54,255 nt of DNA, taken from Candidatus Uhrbacteria bacterium (GTDB lineage Bacteria > Patescibacteriota > Patescibacteriia > UBA9934 > GWF2-40-263). The stretch lies in NCBI GenBank assembly GCA_903843045.1, contig CAIMOJ010000027.1, positions 1-54,255 of the forward strand, in the 5' to 3' direction. A program made the position numbers and the translations under genes. Position 1 is the stretch's first letter. The number at the start of each line of letters is the position of its first letter. Of this stretch, positions 5,913-53,305 are shown piece by piece. Below the pieces are notes generated by a model, which ran no database searches, was not told the origin of the DNA, and saw only the letters and a list, made by a program, of their open reading frames with translations.

Positions 5913-7292
5913 ATGAAGCGCACAAAGATCGTCTGCACCATCGGCCCGGCGTCCGACGCCCCCGCGACATTGTCCGCGATGATCAAGTCCGGGATGAACG
6001 TCGCGCGGCTCAATTTTTCGCACGGGACGCACGCCGGGCACGCGAAGCTCGTGCGGACGATTCGCGCGACGGCGAAGAAAGCGGGCGAAACGGTCGCGAT
6101 CCTCGGCGACCTGCAGGGACCGAAGATTCGGATCGGGGTCGTGCCGGATGCCGGAGTCGTTCTGAGGAACGGCGAGACGGTTACGCTTCCGGTGACGTAC
6201 GCGGCGCTGCACAAGGACGTGAAGAGGGGCGACCGAGTTATGATCGACGACGGGATCATCGAGGTGTCGTACGTGAGCGGGAAGGCCGGGTTCATGACGG
6301 CCAAGGTCGTGAACGGCGGGACGGTCACGTCGCACAAGGGGATGAACTTTCCGGATTCGACCCTTCGCGTTTCCTCGCTGACCGCGAAGGACAAGGAGGA
6401 TATTATTTTTGGTGTTCAACAGGGGGTGGACTGGATGGCACTGTCGTTTGTCACTTCCGCGAAGGACGTGAAGACGTTGCGGAGGTTGATTCGGGAGGCG
6501 AGGAGGGTCGGAGGGTCGGAGGGTCGAAGGTTCGAAGAGCCTCGGATTATTGTCAAAATTGAAAAGCACGAGGCGCTCGACAACTTTGACGAGATTCTGG
6601 CCGCGACGGACGCGGTGATGGTGGCGCGCGGCGACCTTGGGGTGGAGACGCCGGCCGAGGACGTTCCGCTGCGACAGAAGGAGATCGTTGAGAAGTGCCG
6701 CCTCGCGGGAAAGCCCGTCGTCGTCGCGACGCAGATGCTCGACTCGATGATGCGCAACCCGCGCCCGACGCGCGCCGAGGTTTCCGACGTGGCGAACGCG
6801 GTGATTGATCACGCGGACGCGGTGATGCTCTCGGGGGAGTCCGCAAGCGGAAAGTATCCGAGGCAGGCGGTTGCCATGATGGCGAAGATCGTCGTGGAGA
6901 CCGAGGCGTCGAAGTTCGACGACGTGGCCGCCGAGGAGATCGCGGGGTCCGGAGTCGGCGCGCTCAGCGAGACGCTGAAGGCATTCGTGGCGGGAGATCT
7001 CATCTCGGGAATCGTCGCGTCGCATTCGTCCGCCCCCTGGGCGGAGAGGCTCATGATCGCGCGGCCCGAGGTTCCGCTGTTCCTTGCCTGCGCCACGGAA
7101 GCCGAGGCGCGCCAGGTCAGCATCCGCTGGGGCGTGCGTGCATTCGTGCTGAAGTCGAAGTCGTCCGTCGGGTTCGCCGAGAAGGCGATCGCCGAGCTGC
7201 GGGCCCGCAAGTGGGTCAAGAAGGGCGCGCACCTCGCGGTCGTCACGGGGGATGAGAAGGGCGCCGGGTTCGACGTGGCGGTGGCAAGATAA
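5913..7292 (+). CDS. pyk: Pyruvate kinase (carries an in-frame repeat insertion)
   Basis: [61 protein letters not shown]. Confidence 0.97.
6503..6545 (+). repeat. Octamer-unit repeat, solo arm in frame within pyk
   Basis: GAGGGTCG x3, AAGGTTCG, AAGAGCCT, CGG; 6517-6541 is identical to 8381-8405. Confidence 0.85.
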
Positions 7293-7812: not shown

Positions 7813-9073
7813 TGGACAATTGATTTTCCTACCAGATGCCCGGCCGCCCATGACGCCTGGAGGTTGAAGCCGCCGGTGAACCCGTCCACGTCCAAAATCT
7901 CTCCGGCGAAGTACAGTCCGGGACAAATGCGCGATTCCATGGTCGTCGGGTCCACTTCGGAAAGGTCGACCCCGCCCGCGGTCACGAACTCGTCGCCGGC
8001 GCCGCGCTGGATGACGTGGAGCGGGATCGCCTTGAGCCACGCGGCCGTCCGGGCCATGTCCTTTTTGGCGACCTGGTTCGCGCTCTTTGTTTTGGAAATG
8101 CCAAGGTGGTCGACGACGATGTCGGCCAGGGACTTGGGGACGAGGAGGCCGAGGACGTTGTCGAACCGCTTGTTCGGGTTTGCCGTCGCGACCGTCTCGA
8201 CGCGGGCGCGGAGGGCGTCGAGCGTCTCGTCGGGGAACAGGTCGATAGCGATTTCAAGCGGATTGGCCGCGTCGTACGGCTCGAACGCGACGATGGAAGA
8301 GAGCGCGAACACCGCCGGGCCGCTGACGCCCTTGTGGGTGAAGAGGAACGGGCCGGTGAAGGAGGGGAGGGTCGAAGGGGCGGAGGGTCGAAGGTTCGAA
8401 GAGCCGCGGTTAGAAGAGATTGTGGCGCGCTCGAACGAGAGACCCGAGATTTCCTTTGGCCAGGTCTCGGACGTGAAGAATGCATTGAGGCTCGGAGCAA
8501 GCGCGGTGATCGTGTGTCCAAGCGCCGTGGCAAACGCATACCCGTCGCCGGTCGAACCCGTGTGTCGGTACGCCTGGCCGCCCGTCGTGAGGACGAGTTT
8601 GTCGGCGACGATCGGCTCGGGTGACTCCTTCGTAAAGATAAAAAATTCATCGCCGCGCTTTTCGACGCGGGTCGCGGAAGTTTTCAAAAGGATGCGGACG
8701 TTTGACAGCGCGAACAGTTCCTCGAACGCGCGGACGATGTCGTGGCCGTCGTCGGAGACGGGGAACACGCGGAGGTCGGCCTGCGTCTTGAGCGGGACGC
8801 CGTGCGACTCGAACCAGGCCTCGACCGCCTCGGGCGGGAAGGCGTACATGGCGGAGGTGAGAAACTTTCCCCCGCGCGGATATCTCGCGAGGACGGTCTT
8901 CACGTCGCGGATCCCGGTCGTGACGTTGCAGCGGCCGCCGCCGGAGATGATGACCTTCTTTCCGAGCCCGTCGTTGCGTTCGATCAAAAAGATTTCGATG
9001 GACGGATCGTCCTCGTGCAACGTCGCGGCGGCCATCAGCCCGGCCGCGCCCCCTCCGATGATCGCGACTCGCA

Positions 9074-44020: not shown

Positions 44021-44049
44021 TTGACACGAATTCAATCCTGTGGCATCAT
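44021..44049 (+). promoter_or_regulatory. Promoter of MopE-motif gene 5
   Basis: TTGACA-N17-CATCAT. Confidence 0.55.
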
Positions 44050-44126
44050 TCCCGCTCCTTCACGTGACTGCCCGGATAAGCCGGCTTTTGCGCGTCGGAG
44101 ACCACCAGACAAAAGGCAAAGACAAA

Positions 44127-45683
44127 ATGCTCAAGACGCTCCTCCTTCCGCTGACCATCGCGCTCGCGCTCACCGGTTGCAACGCCTCGGTCGCCCCCGC
44201 CTCCAGCGACGACAACATCGTGCCCGTCTCCGGCGACATGGGCCCCGACGTCGACGGCGACGGCTACGGCTCGGTCGTCGACTGCAACGACGACGACGTC
44301 AACGTCAACCCCGGCGAGCGGGAGACCATCGGCAACGGGATCGACGACGACTGCGACGGCGACGTCGACTGCGACGACAGCGAGGTGCCGATGACCGACT
44401 ACGGTCTCGACGCCGACCGCGACGGGTACTTCGACGACTTCGACGGCGACGGCGCCGTGGACGTGGTCAAGATGTGCGACGACACGGACGAGAACGCGGC
44501 GAAGATCTCCGCGATGACCGGCGGTTCCGGCGACGTCGAGAGCTTCGACCCGATCGTCTACAGCGGCGACCCCTTCACGGGCTACGTGCTCCCCGACGCC
44601 GACTGCGACGACGCGGACGCCGCCGTCAACCCGATGGCCTCCGAGGTCTGCAACGGGATCGACGACGACTGCGACGGCTCGATCGACGACGGCGCGGACC
44701 TGTCCACCTACTACTGGGACGGGGACATGGACGGCTTCGGCAACGCGAGCATCAGCGCGGACGCCTGCGAGCCGGGCGAAGGCTGGGTGCTCGACAGCAC
44801 CGACTGCGACGACGCGGACGCGACGGTCTACCCCGAGGCCCCCGAGCTCTGCGACGAGCAGGCCAACGACTGCCTGACGGCCGACACCTGGATGCCCGCC
44901 GACGAGACGGATCTCATGGGCACCTGGTACGCCGACGGCGACACCGACGGCTACGGCGACGCGAGCATGCCGACCTCGGCCTGCGCGCAGCCCGAGGGCA
45001 CCGTGGCCGGCGACACCGACTGCGACGACGCCGAATGGGCCATCAACCCCGGCGCCGACGAGCTCTGCGACACGATCGACAACAACTGCGACGGATCGAT
45101 CGACGGCACGGACTCGGTTGACCAGGTCACCCGGTACCGCGACCACGACGGTGACCTGTACGGCGATGAGACCTTCACCGCCACGAGCTGCAACGCGCCG
45201 CTCGGCTACATCGACACGAACGGCGACTGCGACGACAACGCGGCCACCACCTACCCGGGCGCTCCCGAGCTCATGAACGGCATCGACGACAACTGCAACA
45301 CGACCATCGACGATGGCGCGACCTGCAGCATCGAGATCGAGCTGTTCACCGGCGACGCGGGCACCGCGACCATCGACGGCACGGTCAGCAACAACACGGC
45401 CCTCGACGGCAACTGGCAGCCGATGGGCGTCGACGGGGTCAGCGTGTCGAGCACCTCGCTCGGCGGCGACGACTGGTACTACGACGTCATGCTCTCCGAC
45501 TGCCTCGGCTCCGGCGACGACATCCGCGTCGACGCCGCGTTCTCCGACGGCACCTGGGGCTGCGACAGCGTCGGCACCCCGTCCGGCAGCCTCCGCGGCT
45601 GGCAGGACGGCTCGCCCCTCAGCGTCGCCTACTCGGCCGACGACGCCGACGGACACTGCGTCCTCGTCGTGACGAACCCCTAG
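44127..45683 (+). CDS. Lipoprotein with five MopE-type motifs and a C-terminal beta-sandwich-like domain
   Basis: Lipobox ALTGC; five DC(D/N)D...DC units; followed by CCGGCC/GGCCGG-T6 terminator at 45699-45736. Confidence 0.82.
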   Translation: MLKTLLLPLTIALALTGCNASVAPASSDDNIVPVSGDMGPDVDGDGYGSVVDCNDDDVNVNPGERETIGNGIDDDCDGDVDCDDSEVPMTDYGLDADRDGYFDDFDGDGAVDVVKMCDDTDENAAKISAMTGGSGDVESFDPIVYSGDPFTGYVLPDADCDDADAAVNPMASEVCNGIDDDCDGSIDDGADLSTYYWDGDMDGFGNASISADACEPGEGWVLDSTDCDDADATVYPEAPELCDEQANDCLTADTWMPADETDLMGTWYADGDTDGYGDASMPTSACAQPEGTVAGDTDCDDAEWAINPGADELCDTIDNNCDGSIDGTDSVDQVTRYRDHDGDLYGDETFTATSCNAPLGYIDTNGDCDDNAATTYPGAPELMNGIDDNCNTTIDDGATCSIEIELFTGDAGTATIDGTVSNNTALDGNWQPMGVDGVSVSSTSLGGDDWYYDVMLSDCLGSGDDIRVDAAFSDGTWGCDSVGTPSGSLRGWQDGSPLSVAYSADDADGHCVLVVTNP

Positions 45684-45752
45684 TCCCTCGGGACTCCTCC
45701 GGCCCCTGCGCCCACCAGCGCATCGGCCGGTTTTTTGTTATACTGTCTCCGT

Positions 45753-47231
45753 ATGCTCGTGCTTTTTCTCATCGCCGCCCTCGGCTTCCTCATCCTCACC
45801 TTTTTTCGCCCCCTCACCACCCTCGCGATCCTCGCCCTCTACCTCCCGTTCGAATCCGTCCTCCTCAAGCTCGCGCCCGACGAGATCTACGTCTACGCGC
45901 GCTTTTTCTCCGAGGGTCTCATCTACGTCCTCGCCGCGGTCGTCATCTGGCGCGCCCTGACGGGCACCATTCGCCTCCGCTCGACGCAGGCCGACCTTCC
46001 GTTCATCCTGTTTCTCGTCATCCTCCTCGCCTCCGTCGCCATCAACGCCGTCTCGCCGACGATCGCGATTCTTGGCACGCGCCAGATCATCCGGTTCATC
46101 CTCGTGTTTTTTATCGCCGTCCAGCTGAAGCCGACCCGCGACTACGTCCGCAATCTCACGCTTGCCCTGTTCGCGGTCGTCGGCCTCGAGTCTGTCCTCG
46201 GCATCGTCCAGTCGCTCTCCGGCGGATCGCTCGACCCGCTGCTCCTTCCGTCCGACGCGCATTCGCTCGGCGAGGTGACGCTGACCGGCGGCGTCGACGA
46301 GTTCTGGGAGCCGGGGTCGCGAGTGTTCGCGACGCTTGGGCGATATGATCGGCTTGGGAATTTCCTCTATTTCTTTTTGGCATTGGCGGTCGGATTTGCG
46401 TACGAGTTCTTTTTTATGCGTCGAGGGTCCGCGCCAATCTTGGAGAGAGGATCTTCCTGGCGCGCGGAGATCATCGCGCTGTTCGCCGTCGCCATCCCGA
46501 CGCTCATCCTCACCTACTCCCGCGCCTCGTGGTTCGCGTTCCTCCTTGCGTTCCTTTTCGTCGCCATCTGGATCAAGCGCGACCGCCGCGTGATGCTCGC
46601 CGTCGTGACCGTCATCGTCGGGGTTGTCGCCTACGTCGGAATCACAGGCCTGAACGTCCGCTACATCACCGAGGCGCCCGGACAGACGCTCGTGGAGCGA
46701 TTCTATGAGACGTTCAGCTACGCCCGCTGGCGCGGCGAATACTACGGCCTTGGACGCGTCTACTGGATGGTCCAGACCCCGCTCACCGTCGTGGCCGCGT
46801 CGCCGCTCTTCGGCTTCGGTCCCGGCCAGTTCGGCGGGGGAGCGGTCGTGGCGCTTGGCAACACGAAGGTGTACGAGCAGCTCGGCCTTCCGTTCGGCGT
46901 CTTCGGCACCGACGGGATCATCGACAACAACTGGTTCTCGCTCTGGGGCGAGACAGGCTGCCTCGGGATCTTCTTCTTCCTATGGATGTACCTCGGCCTG
47001 ATCGTCCACTGCGTCCGCGTATACCGACAAAGCAACGATCCGTTCGTCCGCGCCCTCTCGATCGGCGTCGCCGCCGCAATGCTCGGCGTCGCCATGAACG
47101 CGTTTTTGTCCACGGTGTTTGAGATCAGAACGCTCGCGTTCTACGTATGGATGTACGCGGGGTTCGTGGTGGTGCTGGGGGAAGGGGAGAATAGGGTTCC
47201 GAGGGGCGAAGGTTCGAAGAGCCTCGGGTAA
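45753..47231 (+). CDS. O-antigen ligase/Wzy_C family membrane protein
   Basis: RVFATLG, LTYSRASW, PLFGFGPGQF, IDNNWFSLWGETGCLG; many TMs; TGtTATACT-N8-ATG; last ~10 codons derive from the repeat arm. Confidence 0.82.
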   Translation: MLVLFLIAALGFLILTFFRPLTTLAILALYLPFESVLLKLAPDEIYVYARFFSEGLIYVLAAVVIWRALTGTIRLRSTQADLPFILFLVILLASVAINAVSPTIAILGTRQIIRFILVFFIAVQLKPTRDYVRNLTLALFAVVGLESVLGIVQSLSGGSLDPLLLPSDAHSLGEVTLTGGVDEFWEPGSRVFATLGRYDRLGNFLYFFLALAVGFAYEFFFMRRGSAPILERGSSWRAEIIALFAVAIPTLILTYSRASWFAFLLAFLFVAIWIKRDRRVMLAVVTVIVGVVAYVGITGLNVRYITEAPGQTLVERFYETFSYARWRGEYYGLGRVYWMVQTPLTVVAASPLFGFGPGQFGGGAVVALGNTKVYEQLGLPFGVFGTDGIIDNNWFSLWGETGCLGIFFFLWMYLGLIVHCVRVYRQSNDPFVRALSIGVAAAMLGVAMNAFLSTVFEIRTLAFYVWMYAGFVVVLGEGENRVPRGEGSKSLG

Positions 47232-47644
47232 CGATATGCTGTTTACCTATAAGGATCTGACTGTTTGGAACAAGGCCGTGGAGTTGGCTGATATTGTCTA
47301 TAAACTGACGAGGTCTTTTCCAACGGAGGAGAAGTGCGGGCTTGTTTCTCAAATGCGAAGATCCGCCGTCTCAATTCCGTCGAATATTGCCGAGGGGCGT
47401 CTGCGAGGCTCCGACAAGTCTTGTCGAAATTTTCTTCTCATTAGCTTCGGTTCCGCAGGAGAACTCGATACGCAGATCCAAATCGCAAAACGGATTCAGG
47501 AAACAGCGAGCCTTGACTTTCGTGTCGCCGAATCTCTCTTGGATGAAATTCTTCGAATGCTCAACCGCATGATCGAACAGTTGTCTGCGGCAGAGCACAC
47601 AAACCAATAAGCCCTCTTCTTGGCTCTTCGAACCTTCGCCCCTC
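47201..47644. mobile_element. IVS-like element: four-helix-bundle gene enclosed by perfect 23-bp inverted repeats
   Basis: GAGGGGCGAAGGTTCGAAGAGCC (47201-23) and its exact reverse complement (47622-44); mobility is inferred, no recombinase present. Confidence 0.65.
47236..47610 (+). CDS. Four helix bundle protein (23S rRNA IVS protein / TIGR02436-like, Avd-related)
   Basis: YKDLTVWNKA, FPTEEK, LVSQMRRSAVSIPSNIAEG, SAGELDTQI; visibly more AT-rich than its neighbours. Confidence 0.92.
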   Translation: MLFTYKDLTVWNKAVELADIVYKLTRSFPTEEKCGLVSQMRRSAVSIPSNIAEGRLRGSDKSCRNFLLISFGSAGELDTQIQIAKRIQETASLDFRVAESLLDEILRMLNRMIEQLSAAEHTNQ

Positions 47645-47670
47645 ATCACCCCTCCGAACCCTTTGCTCGT

Positions 47671-48918
47671 ATGCGCATCATCCAAGCCAACAAATTCTAC
47701 TTTATGAAGGGCGGGGCCGAGCGGTATATGCTCGACCTTTCCGCGTGGCTCGCATCGCAGGGCCATGAGATTCTTCCGTTCGCGATGCAACACCCGCAGA
47801 ATCTTCCCGCGACAACCTCGCCGTTCTTTCCCTCGTTCGTCGCGACCGAGAATGTCCGTCTCAACCTTGCGGGCGCGAAGACGTTCCTTCGCATGTTCTT
47901 CTCGTCGGAGGCATGGCAGAAGATGGCGCAGCTCGTCGACGCGAAACGGCCCGACGTCGCGCACGTCCATAACATCTATACCCAGCTGTCCCCGTCGATC
48001 CTCGACGCGCTCAAGTCCCGCCGCGTCCCCGTCGTGATGACCGTGCACGATCACCACCTGATTTCCCCTCAGTACAACGTCTGGGCCGCCGGCTGCGGCC
48101 CCGACGCGTCCGTTCCGAGCGTTGGCATGTCGACGGGAATCATCGCGGGCACGCTCTCCCGCTTCCACAAGAATTCCTACGCCGCATCGTTCGCGCAGGT
48201 TGCCGCCTTTAAGTTCCACTACAACCGCGGATCCTATCGCAATGCCGTCGACGTCTTCCTGTGCCCGTCCGACTACATCCGCCGGAAGATGATCGCGGCC
48301 GGGTTTCCCGAGGCGAAGCTCCGGACGAACCACTATGGGGCGGACCCGTCGTCCGTGGCGCCGTCCTACGGGCACAAGGGCTACATGCTGTACGTCGGCC
48401 GCCTCTCGGAGGAGAAGGGGGTCGAGACGGTCATCCACATTGCGCGCCAGCTGCCCGACGTCCCGTTCAAGATCGTCGGCACCGGGCCCGAGGAAGACCG
48501 GCTTCACGCGCTTGCGCACGGGTCGCCGAACATCGAGTTCGTCGGGTTCCGCTCGGGCGAGCTGCTTGCCGAGCTATACGCCGGCGCGATGGCCGTGCTC
48601 GCCCCGAGCCGCGTCCACGAGATCTTCCCGCTCATCACGCTCGAGGCGATGGTCCACGGCAAGCCGGTCATCGGCAGCAGCGTTGGCGGAATGCCCGAGG
48701 TCGTGGAGGATCGCGTCACGGGCCTCCTCGTGGCCCCGAACGACCTGCACGGCTGGGTCGAGGCGGTCATGCGACTGGCCTTCGACGAGGATTTCCGCCT
48801 CGGACTGGCGAGAAACGCCCGATTGGCGGCCGAAACGACGTTTCATGTCAAGAACCACCATGCGCGGGTTCTGAAGGCGTACGAGGACGCGCTTGCCATG
48901 CGCTCGGCGTCCGTCTAG
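47671..48918 (+). CDS. Glycosyltransferase family 4 (GT-B)
   Basis: NKFYFMKGGAERY, VMTVHD, YVGRLSEEKG, EIFPLITLEAM, GGMPEVV. Confidence 0.92.
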   Translation: MRIIQANKFYFMKGGAERYMLDLSAWLASQGHEILPFAMQHPQNLPATTSPFFPSFVATENVRLNLAGAKTFLRMFFSSEAWQKMAQLVDAKRPDVAHVHNIYTQLSPSILDALKSRRVPVVMTVHDHHLISPQYNVWAAGCGPDASVPSVGMSTGIIAGTLSRFHKNSYAASFAQVAAFKFHYNRGSYRNAVDVFLCPSDYIRRKMIAAGFPEAKLRTNHYGADPSSVAPSYGHKGYMLYVGRLSEEKGVETVIHIARQLPDVPFKIVGTGPEEDRLHALAHGSPNIEFVGFRSGELLAELYAGAMAVLAPSRVHEIFPLITLEAMVHGKPVIGSSVGGMPEVVEDRVTGLLVAPNDLHGWVEAVMRLAFDEDFRLGLARNARLAAETTFHVKNHHARVLKAYEDALAMRSASV

Positions 48919-50926: not shown

Positions 50927-52837
50927 TCAGTTCAATGACATCGTAAACACGTCGCTCGACAGCCCGATGATTTCCGCCCTGCCGTCCTTGTCGATGTCCG
51001 CGGCGGTAACTTCGACGCCGTTGCGCTCGCTTGCGTCCGCGGCGAAGAAGTCCGACTTCTTCTTTCCGTCGCGGTCGAACGTCCGAATTTCCGGGCTCCC
51101 TCCCTTTCCGGCCCCCGCGACGATGTCGCCGATTCCGTCTCCGTCCACGTCGCCGACCGCCACGTTCACGCCGCCCCGGAAGGCGGGATCGTAGGCGAAG
51201 AATCCCGGGTTGATGAGCCTGCCCGCCTTGTTGAAAACCCGTATCTGCGGTCCGCCTCCGACGCCGGCGCCGGCGATGATCTCGTCCACGCGGTCGCCGT
51301 TCAAATCGCCGATGGCCACGTTTACGCCGCCGCGGAACGCCGTGTCATACGCGAAGAAGCCGGGGTTGATGAGATTGCCATCCTTGTTGAAGATGCGAAT
51401 CTGCGGGCCGCCGCCGTTCTCCGTCCCCGTGACGATCTCGACGGACCCGTCGTGCTCGAGGTCGCCGATCGCGAGGTTGATGCCGAGCCTGAACGATTCC
51501 GTGTACGGCGCGAATTTGGCATGGACCGTGCCGTCGGCGTTATAGATCGTGACGTACGTGTTGTCCGCCACGACGGTCTCGTTCTTCCCGTCGCCGTCGA
51601 GGTCGTAGGAATTCACCTGCGTCCCGCCCTTCGCCCTGCGCTCGTAGGCGAAGAACCCGTTGCGCTTCGTCGCGCCGGTCGCGGAGAAGACGTGGGCGAA
51701 TGATCCGTTGAGATAGGTCGCGTCGACGATCGTCTCGAGCGGCCGGAGGAGAAGGATTCCGTCCTGCGGCGCGAGCGTGAGCTTGGAAACGATCGATCCG
51801 TTGTTCGTCGCGGGATCCTGGGTTCCGCGAAGCTTCTCGTATTCGCCGTCGAGCCTCACGGTCTGGGGGACGTTCGTCGGGTTGACGACGGTCTCGCCCT
51901 GCTCGTATTCGCGCTTCCAGACGTTCGACGTCTGTTCCGCGGATCCCTTCGGCGCGCCGAGCGACGCGGAGTACTCGTCGTACGTCCAGAGCTGCGCGTG
52001 GTTCTGCGTGCCGAAGTCGTAGCCGAAGTACCCGTCTCCAAGCAGCGTCGTGGCGAGCCCGAAGCGCATCTTCCGGTAGTTGGTCTGCGCGCCCGTGTTG
52101 TCCGTGTTCACGTTCACGGCGATGACCGCGTCGTGGCCGACCTTCGACGGGAGGGAGAGGTAGTCCTTCGTCTGCGACGTCCACGAGGAGGTCGGATCGC
52201 CGGCGGAAGGGAAGGTCTCGAACATGCGGCCGTTGACGTACGGCGTGAACGACGCCGAGGACGATCCGTTCGTGACGATCACCGCGGAGCTGCCAAGCTT
52301 CGATCGCGTCACGGCCAGGAGGTGCGCGTACCCGCTCTTCCAGTCGTCGCGGTCCTGCACCTCGTCGTAAAAGATTCCATCCCAGAGTCCCGTGCCCATC
52401 ACGTTGGTCTTCGCGAACTCGGCGAGATAATCCGACCATCCGGAGTTCAGGTCGAGCGCGGTCGTGTTCGGCCAGATGGAAACGCGCCCGCCGTTCGCGT
52501 CCTTCAGCCACCAGTCGGGACGGATCCCGCGCTTCATCTGCGCGTGGAGCGGATCGGACCAGAAGGCGTTGTTCCACGAGACGGTCGGGACGTACGCGAG
52601 GATGATGATGTCGGGGTTCAGTTTTCGCACGGCGGAAAAAAACGGCTTGTTGTATACTTGGGCCTCGGACGGGATGACGATCAGGTCGAAGGAGGACAGC
52701 GTCGCGATGGTCGCCTGGTTCTCCAGCGCGGATCCGGACATCAGGTAGTAGTTCGACGTCCGCACAAAGTCGCCGTTCGCCGCGAGCGCGGCAACGGGGA
52801 AGAGGAGGGAAGTCAGGATGATCGCGAGGTACTTCAT
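50927..52837 (-). CDS. Secreted putative glycoside hydrolase (TIM barrel, GHL15/GH114-like) fused to FG-GAP/VCBS repeats
   Basis: Signal peptide; WDGIFYDE, NGRMFETF, MRFGLATTLL; four GD(L/V)xGDG-type repeats with GGPQIRxF. Confidence 0.7.
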   Translation of the reverse strand: MKYLAIILTSLLFPVAALAANGDFVRTSNYYLMSGSALENQATIATLSSFDLIVIPSEAQVYNKPFFSAVRKLNPDIIILAYVPTVSWNNAFWSDPLHAQMKRGIRPDWWLKDANGGRVSIWPNTTALDLNSGWSDYLAEFAKTNVMGTGLWDGIFYDEVQDRDDWKSGYAHLLAVTRSKLGSSAVIVTNGSSSASFTPYVNGRMFETFPSAGDPTSSWTSQTKDYLSLPSKVGHDAVIAVNVNTDNTGAQTNYRKMRFGLATTLLGDGYFGYDFGTQNHAQLWTYDEYSASLGAPKGSAEQTSNVWKREYEQGETVVNPTNVPQTVRLDGEYEKLRGTQDPATNNGSIVSKLTLAPQDGILLLRPLETIVDATYLNGSFAHVFSATGATKRNGFFAYERRAKGGTQVNSYDLDGDGKNETVVADNTYVTIYNADGTVHAKFAPYTESFRLGINLAIGDLEHDGSVEIVTGTENGGGPQIRIFNKDGNLINPGFFAYDTAFRGGVNVAIGDLNGDRVDEIIAGAGVGGGPQIRVFNKAGRLINPGFFAYDPAFRGGVNVAVGDVDGDGIGDIVAGAGKGGSPEIRTFDRDGKKKSDFFAADASERNGVEVTAADIDKDGRAEIIGLSSDVFTMSLN

Positions 52838-53145
52838 GGGTTCCCAGGGACGTTCGTCCCGATTGTCTCGTCCTCGATCGACTTCGGATTCGGGGAGAAC
52901 AGTTTGTTCTTTATGCGCCACTGGTTCACGTACTGGCCGATCCCCGTTTTGTCGCGCTTGTTGCGGACGGTCGTGGTATCCTGTGACCACTTGAGCAGGC
53001 TCTCAAAGTTCAGCTTATACCTTCCTTGGACCACGACATAGGTAATTTGTCCATCGGCCACGGCCCGACGGATCGTCCTCTGGGACACGCCGAACATCCG
53101 GGCGGCCTCGGAAACGGAGAGACGGATGATGGAGGTGATGGGCAT
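52834..53145 (-). CDS. Small helix-turn-helix (excisionase/MerR-like) DNA-binding protein
   Basis: LSVSEAARMFGVSQRTIRRAV; ATGA overlap with the downstream gene. Confidence 0.8.
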   Translation of the reverse strand: MPITSIIRLSVSEAARMFGVSQRTIRRAVADGQITYVVVQGRYKLNFESLLKWSQDTTTVRNKRDKTGIGQYVNQWRIKNKLFSPNPKSIEDETIGTNVPGNP

Positions 53146-53150
53146 AGCGT

Positions 53151-53232
53151 GAGGAGGGTTCGTAGGGTTGAGGAGGGTCGAAGGTTCGAAGGGTCGAGGT
53201 TCTTCGAACCTGGAACCCTGGTCACCCTAACC
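53151..53232. repeat. Gene-less palindromic copy of the octamer-unit repeat
   Basis: AGGTTCGAAG (53182-91) / CTTCGAACCT (53202-11) perfect IR, flanked by AGGGTT / AACCCT units. Confidence 0.8.
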
Positions 53233-53305
53233 CAAGTTTGTCCACACCAGTGTAGCCAAAATCATCTAAAAAGTCCACTAAAACCGTGCAAACCACTCCA
53301 AACCC

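Follow-up and report, generated by a model that had tools for sequence, protein, structure and literature searches.

Intervening sequences (IVSs) that carry an open reading frame (ORF) occur within the 23S rRNA of Leptospira, and the ORF-bearing kind reportedly goes back to work by Ralph and McClelland in 1993. To our knowledge, neither the rRNA IVSs nor their S23p proteins have gained a known function or origin since the early 1990s, and PF05635, the family in question, is a large orphan family. Here we describe a PF05635 gene held between two inverted repeat arrays in a stretch of 54,255 nucleotides from a Candidatus Uhrbacteria bacterium (the window; contig C27 of a genome of 1.28 Mb in 76 contigs, with a GC content of 61%). 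The gene lies between two protein-coding genes, and the repeats of its arms are dispersed through the genome that carries it.

The IVS in helix 45 of the Coxiella burnetii 23S rRNA combines a 28-bp terminal stem, an S23p gene and GACAGAT heptamers that vary in number just before the ATG, and it is excised by RNase III with a cut at the first repeat (PMC4990558). The four-helix-bundle (4HB) family and its fold are related to Avd of diversity-generating retroelements (DGRs), and homologs form pentameric barrels (PMC10053308). One source gives GxxRxxxSxxxNxxE as the conserved motif of PF05635 proteins and reports PF05635 genes inside cas operons, in a passage that makes no mention of arms (PMC3936711). 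According to their abstract, Rehm et al. (2015) described G-rich heptamer arrays of Xanthomonas and Nostoc that are found after stop codons (PMC4692102). In the literature we found no description of PF05635 cassettes outside rRNA with periodic inverted arms or with a link to dispersed repeats.

A PF05635 gene caged by inverted arrays

On balance, we read positions 47185-47669 as an IVS-type hairpin cassette in which the PF05635 gene occupies the loop and two inverted arrays of 8-nt units form the stem. Direct comparison confirmed that 47201-47223 (GAGGGGCGAAGGTTCGAAGAGCC) is the exact reverse complement of 47622-47644; with mismatches allowed, the arms extend to 47194-47223 and 47622-47651, which are 30 nt long, 90% complementary and spaced by 398 nt. 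An earlier description made from the letters of the window (the sequence-only reading) had pointed out these arms and placed further copies of their core at 6517, 8381 and 53173. We found the 23-mer at 6519, 8383 and 53173, giving, together with 47201 and 47622, five window sites at up to 3 mismatches compared to none in 100 shuffles; the core AGGTTCGAAG occurs 6 times in the window against 0.13 expected. The earlier claim that the 23-mer contains no stop codon in any frame also held, as TAA, TAG and TGA are absent from both strands by direct reading. Its picture of the arms was right about a recurring perfect 23-mer but not about a single unstructured word: the arms are arrays of an 8-nt unit, RGGKTCGA, and those of the left arm make up tandem short repeats directly 5' of the cassette ATG. 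A long-range stem between the arms was present in both the minimum free energy and the centroid RNA folds (z = -3.87). The three states proposed for the repeat are real, namely filled at 47185-47669, an empty hairpin at about 53151-53233, and solo arrays translated in genes.

The sole gene between the arms (47236-47610) matched PF05635 (1.6e-33; 115.5 bits with a cut-off of 33.8; model positions 1-105 of 106) and TIGR02436 (4.9e-32; 110.4 bits with a cut-off of 24), in agreement with the earlier statement that the arms enclose only a TIGR02436-type gene. Pfam and NCBIfam scans of the protein returned no other kind of family, and no IS200/IS605-like tyrosine transposase. The conserved motif was present in the translation, in the residues ...QMRRSAVSIPSNIAEG..., and the nearest solved structure by sequence match was 2GSC (Xcc0516; E = 6e-23). 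The gene has a GC content of 49% (63-64% in its neighbours) and a third-position GC content of 53% (86% in its neighbours). With dN = 0.22 and dS saturated against the ortholog in L004/G025, the protein is under purifying selection. A scan of 46900-47900 gave no sigma-70-like promoter and weak terminator-like matches that fell within coding sequence, and an Rfam scan of 46500-48300 gave no match at E <= 1.

The flanks are a Wzy_C-type, ligase-like gene and a GT4 glycosyltransferase gene, so the cassette does not lie in rRNA, and its gene is co-oriented with both. As had been claimed, the ligase-like ORF (45735-47231) runs through the left arm, and the right perfect arm ends 26 nt 5' of the GT4 ATG at 47671; the ligase stop lies 6 nt past the left arm. 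Homology of the ligase-like gene to relatives goes no further than 47184, so its last ~15 codons and stop derive from the insert. In blastn against the sister genome (L001, also listed as G089; ~93-94% identity over aligned 1-kb chunks), homology at 90% ended at 47184 and resumed at 95% at 47670, and other relatives broke at the same points (47185 and 47670 in L002). Just 5' of the ligase-like gene, the ORF at 44040-45683 encodes a 547-aa protein that is rich in Asp, Cys and Gly and abounds in DCDD...NP-type repeats; in blastn it gave numerous partial matches, both internal and across genomes. The coordinates of the cassette, its host genes and other copies of its repeat in the window are given in Table 1.

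Table 1. The cassette, its parts, its host genes and further copies of its repeat in the window.
Feature	Position	Strand	Description
Whole cassette	47185..47669	+	485-bp block non-homologous to sister genome L001/G089 (blastn)
Left arm	47194..47223	+	G/A-rich array of 8-nt units; perfect core 47201-47223; codes new C-terminal tail of ligase-like protein
4HB gene	47236..47610	+	124 aa; PF05635 / TIGR02436; motif RxxxSxxxNxxE
Right arm	47622..47662	+	C/T-rich inverted array; perfect core 47622-47644, then imperfect to 47651-47662; paired to left arm in RNA fold
Upstream host gene, Wzy_C / O-antigen-ligase-like membrane protein	45735..47231	+	Pfam PF04932; last ~15 codons and stop inside cassette
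Downstream host gene, GT4 glycosyltransferase	47671..48918	+	Pfam PF00534/PF13439; start overlapping or adjoining the ligase stop where the junction is empty in relatives
Empty hairpin of the same family	53151..53233	.	5' of small helix-turn-helix gene; folds with z = -2.4 (+ strand) and -5.3 (- strand)
Solo array in pyruvate kinase gene	6500..6545	+	Translated, sense
Solo array in HI0933-like flavoprotein gene	8360..8409	+	Gene on minus strand, so C-rich strand is translated

Occupants of the junction and cages in relatives

The cassette varies as DNA: in relatives its slot is empty, holds a hairpin only, or is otherwise filled. Across 27 genomes of the bacterial family, the ligase/GT4 junction was empty in 13, with gaps of -5 to 50 nt and several overlapping stops and starts, which answers the earlier proposal to look for an empty allele in relatives. 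Six genomes held a hairpin only (75-151 nt; the one in L090 is an empty array of 8-nt TAG units), five a 4HB cassette with four different arm types among them, two a DUF559 cassette and one an NYN-domain gene. In the sister genome, the slot is 452 nt long and holds a different 4HB gene (the protein is 52% identical) between unrelated arms, GGGCTTAAGGCTGAAAGGCGTAAGGCTTAAGG. A GIY-YIG gene is found at the junction in L006, and G003 has a further 4HB cassette directly 5' of its GT4 gene, as judged from coordinates. The NYN-domain gene (PF01936; 164 aa) lies in a 603-nt gap in L093 (G048); no obvious arms were seen in the 90 nt at each gap end, which were viewed without an inverted-repeat test. 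The idea that the cassette had filled a pre-existing hairpin of its own family at this junction was rejected, since relatives with an empty junction lack a hairpin of that family.

A tree of 35 4HB proteins indicated that the six junction residents require at least two origins; no bootstrap tree gave a single origin, and the G003 junction gene fell in a separate clade with 100/98 support. The window gene was sister to the gene of G025/L004, where the arms are related and the G025 GT4 is 70% identical. The 4HB gene of the sister genome grouped with that of G090 (GT4 73%) although the GT4 genes of the window genome and the sister genome are 97% identical.

Four PF05635 genes are present in the window genome, each fitted tightly between a co-oriented upstream stop and the next gene start and all flanked by inverted arrays of 8-9-nt units, with a different unit at each. 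The earlier expectation that the window repeat would accompany the other 4HB genes of this genome was not borne out: a AGGTTCGAAG arm common to all of them was rejected, as the other three have their own arms made of unrelated units. One of the four, at C51:11700-12240, has an in-frame TGA, so its gene is probably in decay; the arms, GAAGCTCGAAGTTCGAAAAAAG, are built in two tiers, one array outside and one inside.

In the bacterial family, PF05635 was present in 44 of 61 genomes. Thirty loci were fetched from relatives, and all 28 that were testable had flanking inverted arrays, with alignment scores of 28-83 (median 44.5) compared to a median of 16 and a maximum of 29 for 112 displaced controls. 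The arm unit varies between cassettes (TAGCGTA, TAGGTGT, AGTCGTGG and others), with a repeat size of 6-10 nt. The left arm is G/A-rich on the sense strand, with C at 9%, and for 35 of 40 cassettes an ORF on the same strand has its end no more than ~60 nt from the left-arm start, usually within 10 nt. In Calditrichaceae, Caldilinea and Pyrinomonadaceae (Calditrichota, Chloroflexota and Acidobacteriota), 12 of 17 genes scored above every control; two cyanobacterial PF05635 genes did not.

Other genes of the window genome are caged as well. At C40:6385-6910, a GxxExxY gene (TIGR04256, PD-(D/E)XK) lies between 60-nt perfect inverted arms; its sister slot holds a 75%-identical GxxExxY gene with partly different arms, of which the variable word occurs 25 times there and never in the window genome. 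Two blocks of 1.4-1.6 kb, C17:7729-9295 and C17:25937-27360, are bounded by perfect inverted arms of 61 nt and 23 nt and each code for a paralogous protein of ~400 aa, of which the 417-aa one gave no hit in Pfam or NCBIfam; the blocks may represent the same caging with a larger cargo. At C46:170578-171175, a 25-nt perfect palindromic pair flanks the gene of a 175-aa protein with a PaaX_M / Cas2-like domain (E = 9e-8).

Arm repeats and shared slots in two sister genomes

The repeat of the window cassette (family A) is amplified in one genome. At up to one mismatch, the 16-mer GGTCGAAGGTTCGAAG had 45 copies in the window genome, whereas none of the 72 other family genomes had more than 5. The family-A copies comprise ~14 full hairpins, which read ...GGGTCGAAGGTTCGAAGARCC-NNGG-YTCTTCGAACCTTCGACCC... 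and are found for the most part between co-directional genes, and ~24 solo arrays, which lie within ORFs in both orientations (~12 vs 11). One full hairpin, C8:3161-3202, is located ~75 nt 5' of RNase III homology (C8:3277-3672), and the sister genome holds another repeat in that slot.

The three other junction cassettes tried gave reciprocal results. An arm word of G089 had 11 copies there, none in the window genome and 0-4 in the others searched; one of G030 had 22 copies (0-1 in the others searched), and one of G090 had 30 (0-4). We then compared the window genome with its sister using exact 12-mers from the arms of 14 listed cassette slots, and 8 of the 14 showed amplification specific to their own genome. 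For the window genome these were the family-A cassette (33 copies, 2 in the sister) and the C51 4HB cassette (GTTCGAAAAAAG; 19 and 0). For the sister they were the 4HB cassettes at the junction (17 copies, 3 in the window genome), on its C19 (11 and 0), C3 (14 and 0) and C38 (8 and 0), the DUF559 cassette (19 and 2) and the GxxExxY cassette (25 and 0); the word AGTGACGGAGTG from the C3 cassette arms is amplified in the sister. The arms of sister cassettes C4 and C14 were not clearly amplified, a partial copy on its C19 had no usable arm, and the top 12-mer of the window-genome GxxExxY cassette (C40), TGCGAATAACGA, was common in both genomes (31 vs 24). Amplification of arm families is confined to genomes with the matching cassette, and this pattern points to a previously undescribed type of mobile element that lacks a recognisable transposase.

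To see what the sister genome holds at family-A sites, the orthologous place of each was located through its flanks, and both flanks were found for 35. The same repeat was conserved at 6 of them; 14 held a different dispersed repeat of the sister, 2 a unique hairpin, 10 other sequence and 3 nothing. Dispersed repeats were called from 15-mers present at least 3 times and covering at least 20 nt, a threshold reached by 3.2% of random G089 segments; an earlier one (13-mers present at least 4 times) was discarded since 53% of random segments reached it. The five family copies in C6:1-9500 were excluded from this orthology, as only the first 1 kb of that segment is collinear with the sister; C6:1025-9500, which has no collinear counterpart there, is possibly an island rich in repeats and specific to the strain. 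Conversely, a dispersed repeat of the window genome was present at 8 of 13 family-B sites of the sister, and none of these sites was conserved. Over 332 orthologous spacers, the fraction occupied by a repeat in the sister was 0.49 where the window-genome spacer was occupied and 0.07 where it was not; 2% of random intragenic positions were occupied.

Single slots show the same exchange. The slot of the empty hairpin at 53151-53233 holds a family-B hairpin in the sister, between 95%-identical flanks, and that of the pyruvate kinase array holds a CACTCAATCACTCC-type array of nearly equal length (blocks of 114 and 111 nt). Next to 53151, in the spacer after the start of the minus-strand gene at 50927-52990, 52784-52870 is wholly unlike its sister counterpart, a hairpin of CAAGAAA/CAAGAGA heptamers, and is another swapped slot. 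Gene-bearing cassettes behave in like manner: each of the five in the window genome is matched by another in the corresponding slot of the sister, with flanks 89-96% identical, and at three of the four shared 4HB slots the proteins are only 52-62% identical and the arms differ. Slots are thus common to the two genomes while their occupants belong to each genome's own families, suggesting that copies are laid into or over earlier repeats rather than landing at random. Cassette anatomy, its gain, loss and replacement as DNA, the per-genome amplification of cognate arms and the sharing of slots between the sisters are direct observations.

Explanations weighed and known systems compared

We consider, with moderate confidence, that an IVS-type cassette placed at the DNA level, acting as master to a family of satellites, explains these data best. 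The cassette would have been placed as DNA into a formerly coupled ligase-like/GT4 junction, and it would most likely be transcribed by read-through because it is co-oriented with both host genes and no promoter-like site was found. As the gene-bearing master of its repeat family, it would have the ~14 empty hairpins and ~24 solo arrays as satellites, amplified recently and only in the window genome, the copies being laid into or written over earlier repeats. The 4HB protein, which we infer to be a toroidal, Avd-like nucleic-acid binder, may recognise its own repeat units and promote their copying. By analogy with 23S rRNA IVSs, RNase III, of which the window genome has two homologs, may cut the stem on the transcript.

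Several points weigh against such an element. Target-site duplications were seen neither at the cassette ends nor at three clean presence/absence sites, and no transposase, recombinase or nuclease is coded in the 4HB cassette, which has a single ORF of 124 aa. Some cassettes have no satellites, among them the C23 and C69 4HB cassettes of the window genome, whose arms are not amplified. Both arms of the window cassette read GGGGCGAAGG and 24 exact satellites read GGGTCGAAGG; given this one-base difference, most satellites were not copied letter for letter from the cassette in its present form. On the sense strand, the arm mismatches of 45 cassettes showed no excess of G·U-compatible changes (33 vs 47 antisense, with 111 transversions). 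The pattern of junction alleles could stem from homologous recombination in the conserved flanks. Finally, both sister genomes are metagenome-assembled, and assembly or mixed populations could affect their repeat content.

Some of these points would be expected if the hairpins were REP-like (repetitive extragenic palindromic) elements spread by host functions and the 4HB gene had merely landed in one resident loop, in which case its arms would be uninformative about the gene. There are several hairpin families, some without a resident cassette (a BoxC/PIT-type core word has 7 copies in the window genome, where no DUF559 gene was found), and both the unamplified arms of two 4HB cassettes and the one-base offset of the window arms from the satellite consensus fit a passenger gene. 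We nevertheless judge this explanation unlikely: the empty junctions of relatives lack a hairpin of this family, gene and arms were inherited together in G025/L004, arms accompany 28 of 28 PF05635 genes examined in the bacterial family, and in two sister genomes 4HB, DUF559 and GxxExxY cassettes alike have arm words amplified specifically in the genome that carries them.

The break points at the junction coincide with conserved coding-sequence ends, the alleles do not track GT4 similarity (70% for G025; 97% for the sister genome, which shares its allele group with G090 at 73%), and all five cassette slots of the window genome are also cassette slots in its sister. This would suit a hypervariable slot in which the cassette is not self-mobile and old junction alleles are exchanged by homologous recombination in the flanking genes. 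Such exchange, however, leaves unexplained why arm words are amplified only in the genome with the matching cassette and why intragenic slots hold the resident genome's own family, and it sits poorly with the separate clade of the G003 junction gene (100/98) and with the same architecture in distant phyla and inside rRNA. We regard it as quite improbable.

The sequence-only reading had favoured an element acting at the level of the mRNA, an interpretation that our results support in part. The only reverse transcriptase (RT) of the genome, at C9:22033-23076, is of the DGR type (347 aa, with an LGNLTSQ motif) and overlaps the start of infB. A bAvd-like gene lies divergent to it at the contig end (C9:22033-23398), and a conserved counterpart of this pair (85% and 86% identity) exists in the sister genome, along with a second RT/bAvd pair. 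No template/variable repeat pair near the C9 RT came up in a self-blast. In the anatomy of the locus, with its sense gene, tandem repeats and stem, the mRNA-level idea stood; variation as DNA and the lack of a G·U bias told against it. The suggestion that the stem juxtaposes the ligase stop and the GT4 start was weakened, since the stop lies on the loop side of the stem and a ribosome must melt the stem to reach it. That the stem loops the gene out of the mRNA, with RNase III excision or stop/start apposition and possibly spread through RNA, is the least probable of the alternatives: IVS-like anatomy, RNase III genes, overlapping or abutting stops and starts in empty relatives (so that the insert interrupted a coupling) and a DGR-type RT with a bAvd-like partner speak for it, but arm mismatches have no G·U-compatible bias, the stop is on the loop side, solo arrays within genes in both orientations (~12 vs 11) suggest events at the level of DNA, it is as DNA that satellites and cassettes vary from genome to genome, and the RT, located on another contig beside an Avd-like gene of its own, shows no link to the cassette.

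If the cassette is indeed a DNA-placed master of satellites, a wider class may be sketched, as a tentative generalisation that we hold possible but would not lean on. PF05635 genes with inverted arrays, and DUF559 and GxxExxY cassettes in parallel, would form a transposase-less, copy-and-overwrite class in which a master rewrites the hairpins or arrays resident in slots (operon junctions, rRNA helices, tolerant protein loops) to its own arm sequence, so that the repeats of a genome track its cassettes. The 23S rRNA IVS would then be a special case, with the Avd-like 4HB protein as sequence reader, possibly together with host repair or a DGR-type RT.

The locus shows the gene-plus-stem unit of rRNA IVSs residing in an ordinary operon, ties it to a genome-specific burst of short hairpins and in-frame arrays, and ranks among the clearest examples of one slot being filled, emptied and refilled with something else within a bacterial family. 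What it adds is a junction with all states, family-wide counts of private amplification and a two-genome census of slot swaps that includes ORFs. The link between master and satellites, if true, would account for some of the as yet unexplained excess of periodic 7-9-nt repeats in bacterial genomes, would reveal a way for DNA to spread without a recognisable transposase, and would show how the tiny genomes of the Candidate Phyla Radiation (CPR) tolerate repeats inside essential genes. The 4HB protein would also gain a directly testable function, the binding of its own arm repeats.

Compared with known systems, the cassette differs from insertion sequences and miniature inverted-repeat transposable elements (MITEs) in having neither a target-site duplication nor a transposase. 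The abstract on the Xanthomonas and Nostoc arrays says nothing of a gene family, a cassette or a master copy, and it takes the arrays to be quadruplex-forming (PMC4692102). With DGR Avd, the cassette protein shares a related four-helix-bundle fold and family (PMC10053308), but the cassette has no adjacent reverse transcriptase, template repeat or variable repeat. DUF559 and GxxExxY cassettes with BoxC/PIT-type arms are alike in size (0.4-0.6 kb), in their inverted-repeat cage, in using the same junction slot in relatives and in the own-genome amplification of arm words; they differ in coding for unrelated proteins (Vsr-like and PD-(D/E)XK nucleases), and the arms of DUF559 cassettes are triplex-type palindromes rather than simple tandem arrays. 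REP sequences and their REP-associated tyrosine transposases (RAYTs), or REPtrons, are alike in plan: one gene lies between inverted copies of a short palindromic repeat dispersed in the same genome, the gene-repeat pairs are genome-specific, as is the dispersal seen here, and the repeats are mostly intergenic. Unlike a RAYT, which is an IS200/IS605-type tyrosine transposase, the cassette gene encodes a 4HB protein without a known catalytic motif, its arms are tandem arrays of 7-9-nt units, and many satellites are solo arrays in coding sequence.

A further comparison is with the rRNA IVS. The cassette differs from it in lying between two protein-coding genes and not in rRNA, the location that defines such an IVS, in having arms that belong to a ~45-copy family with copies translated in ORFs, and in a slot that holds other cassettes in relatives; RNase III excision is a feature of the rRNA IVS, and the cassette is known from its sequence. 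They share an S23p / PF05635 gene in sense with the host transcript, tandem repeats directly before the ATG (GACAGAT heptamers in Coxiella, 8-nt units in the cassette), complementary termini that form a stem of ~28-30 bp, a GC content below that of the host and a sporadic distribution among relatives. Because the Coxiella 23S IVS has the same plan, the cassette is, in its build, the same kind of object as an ORF-bearing IVS, but in an operon.

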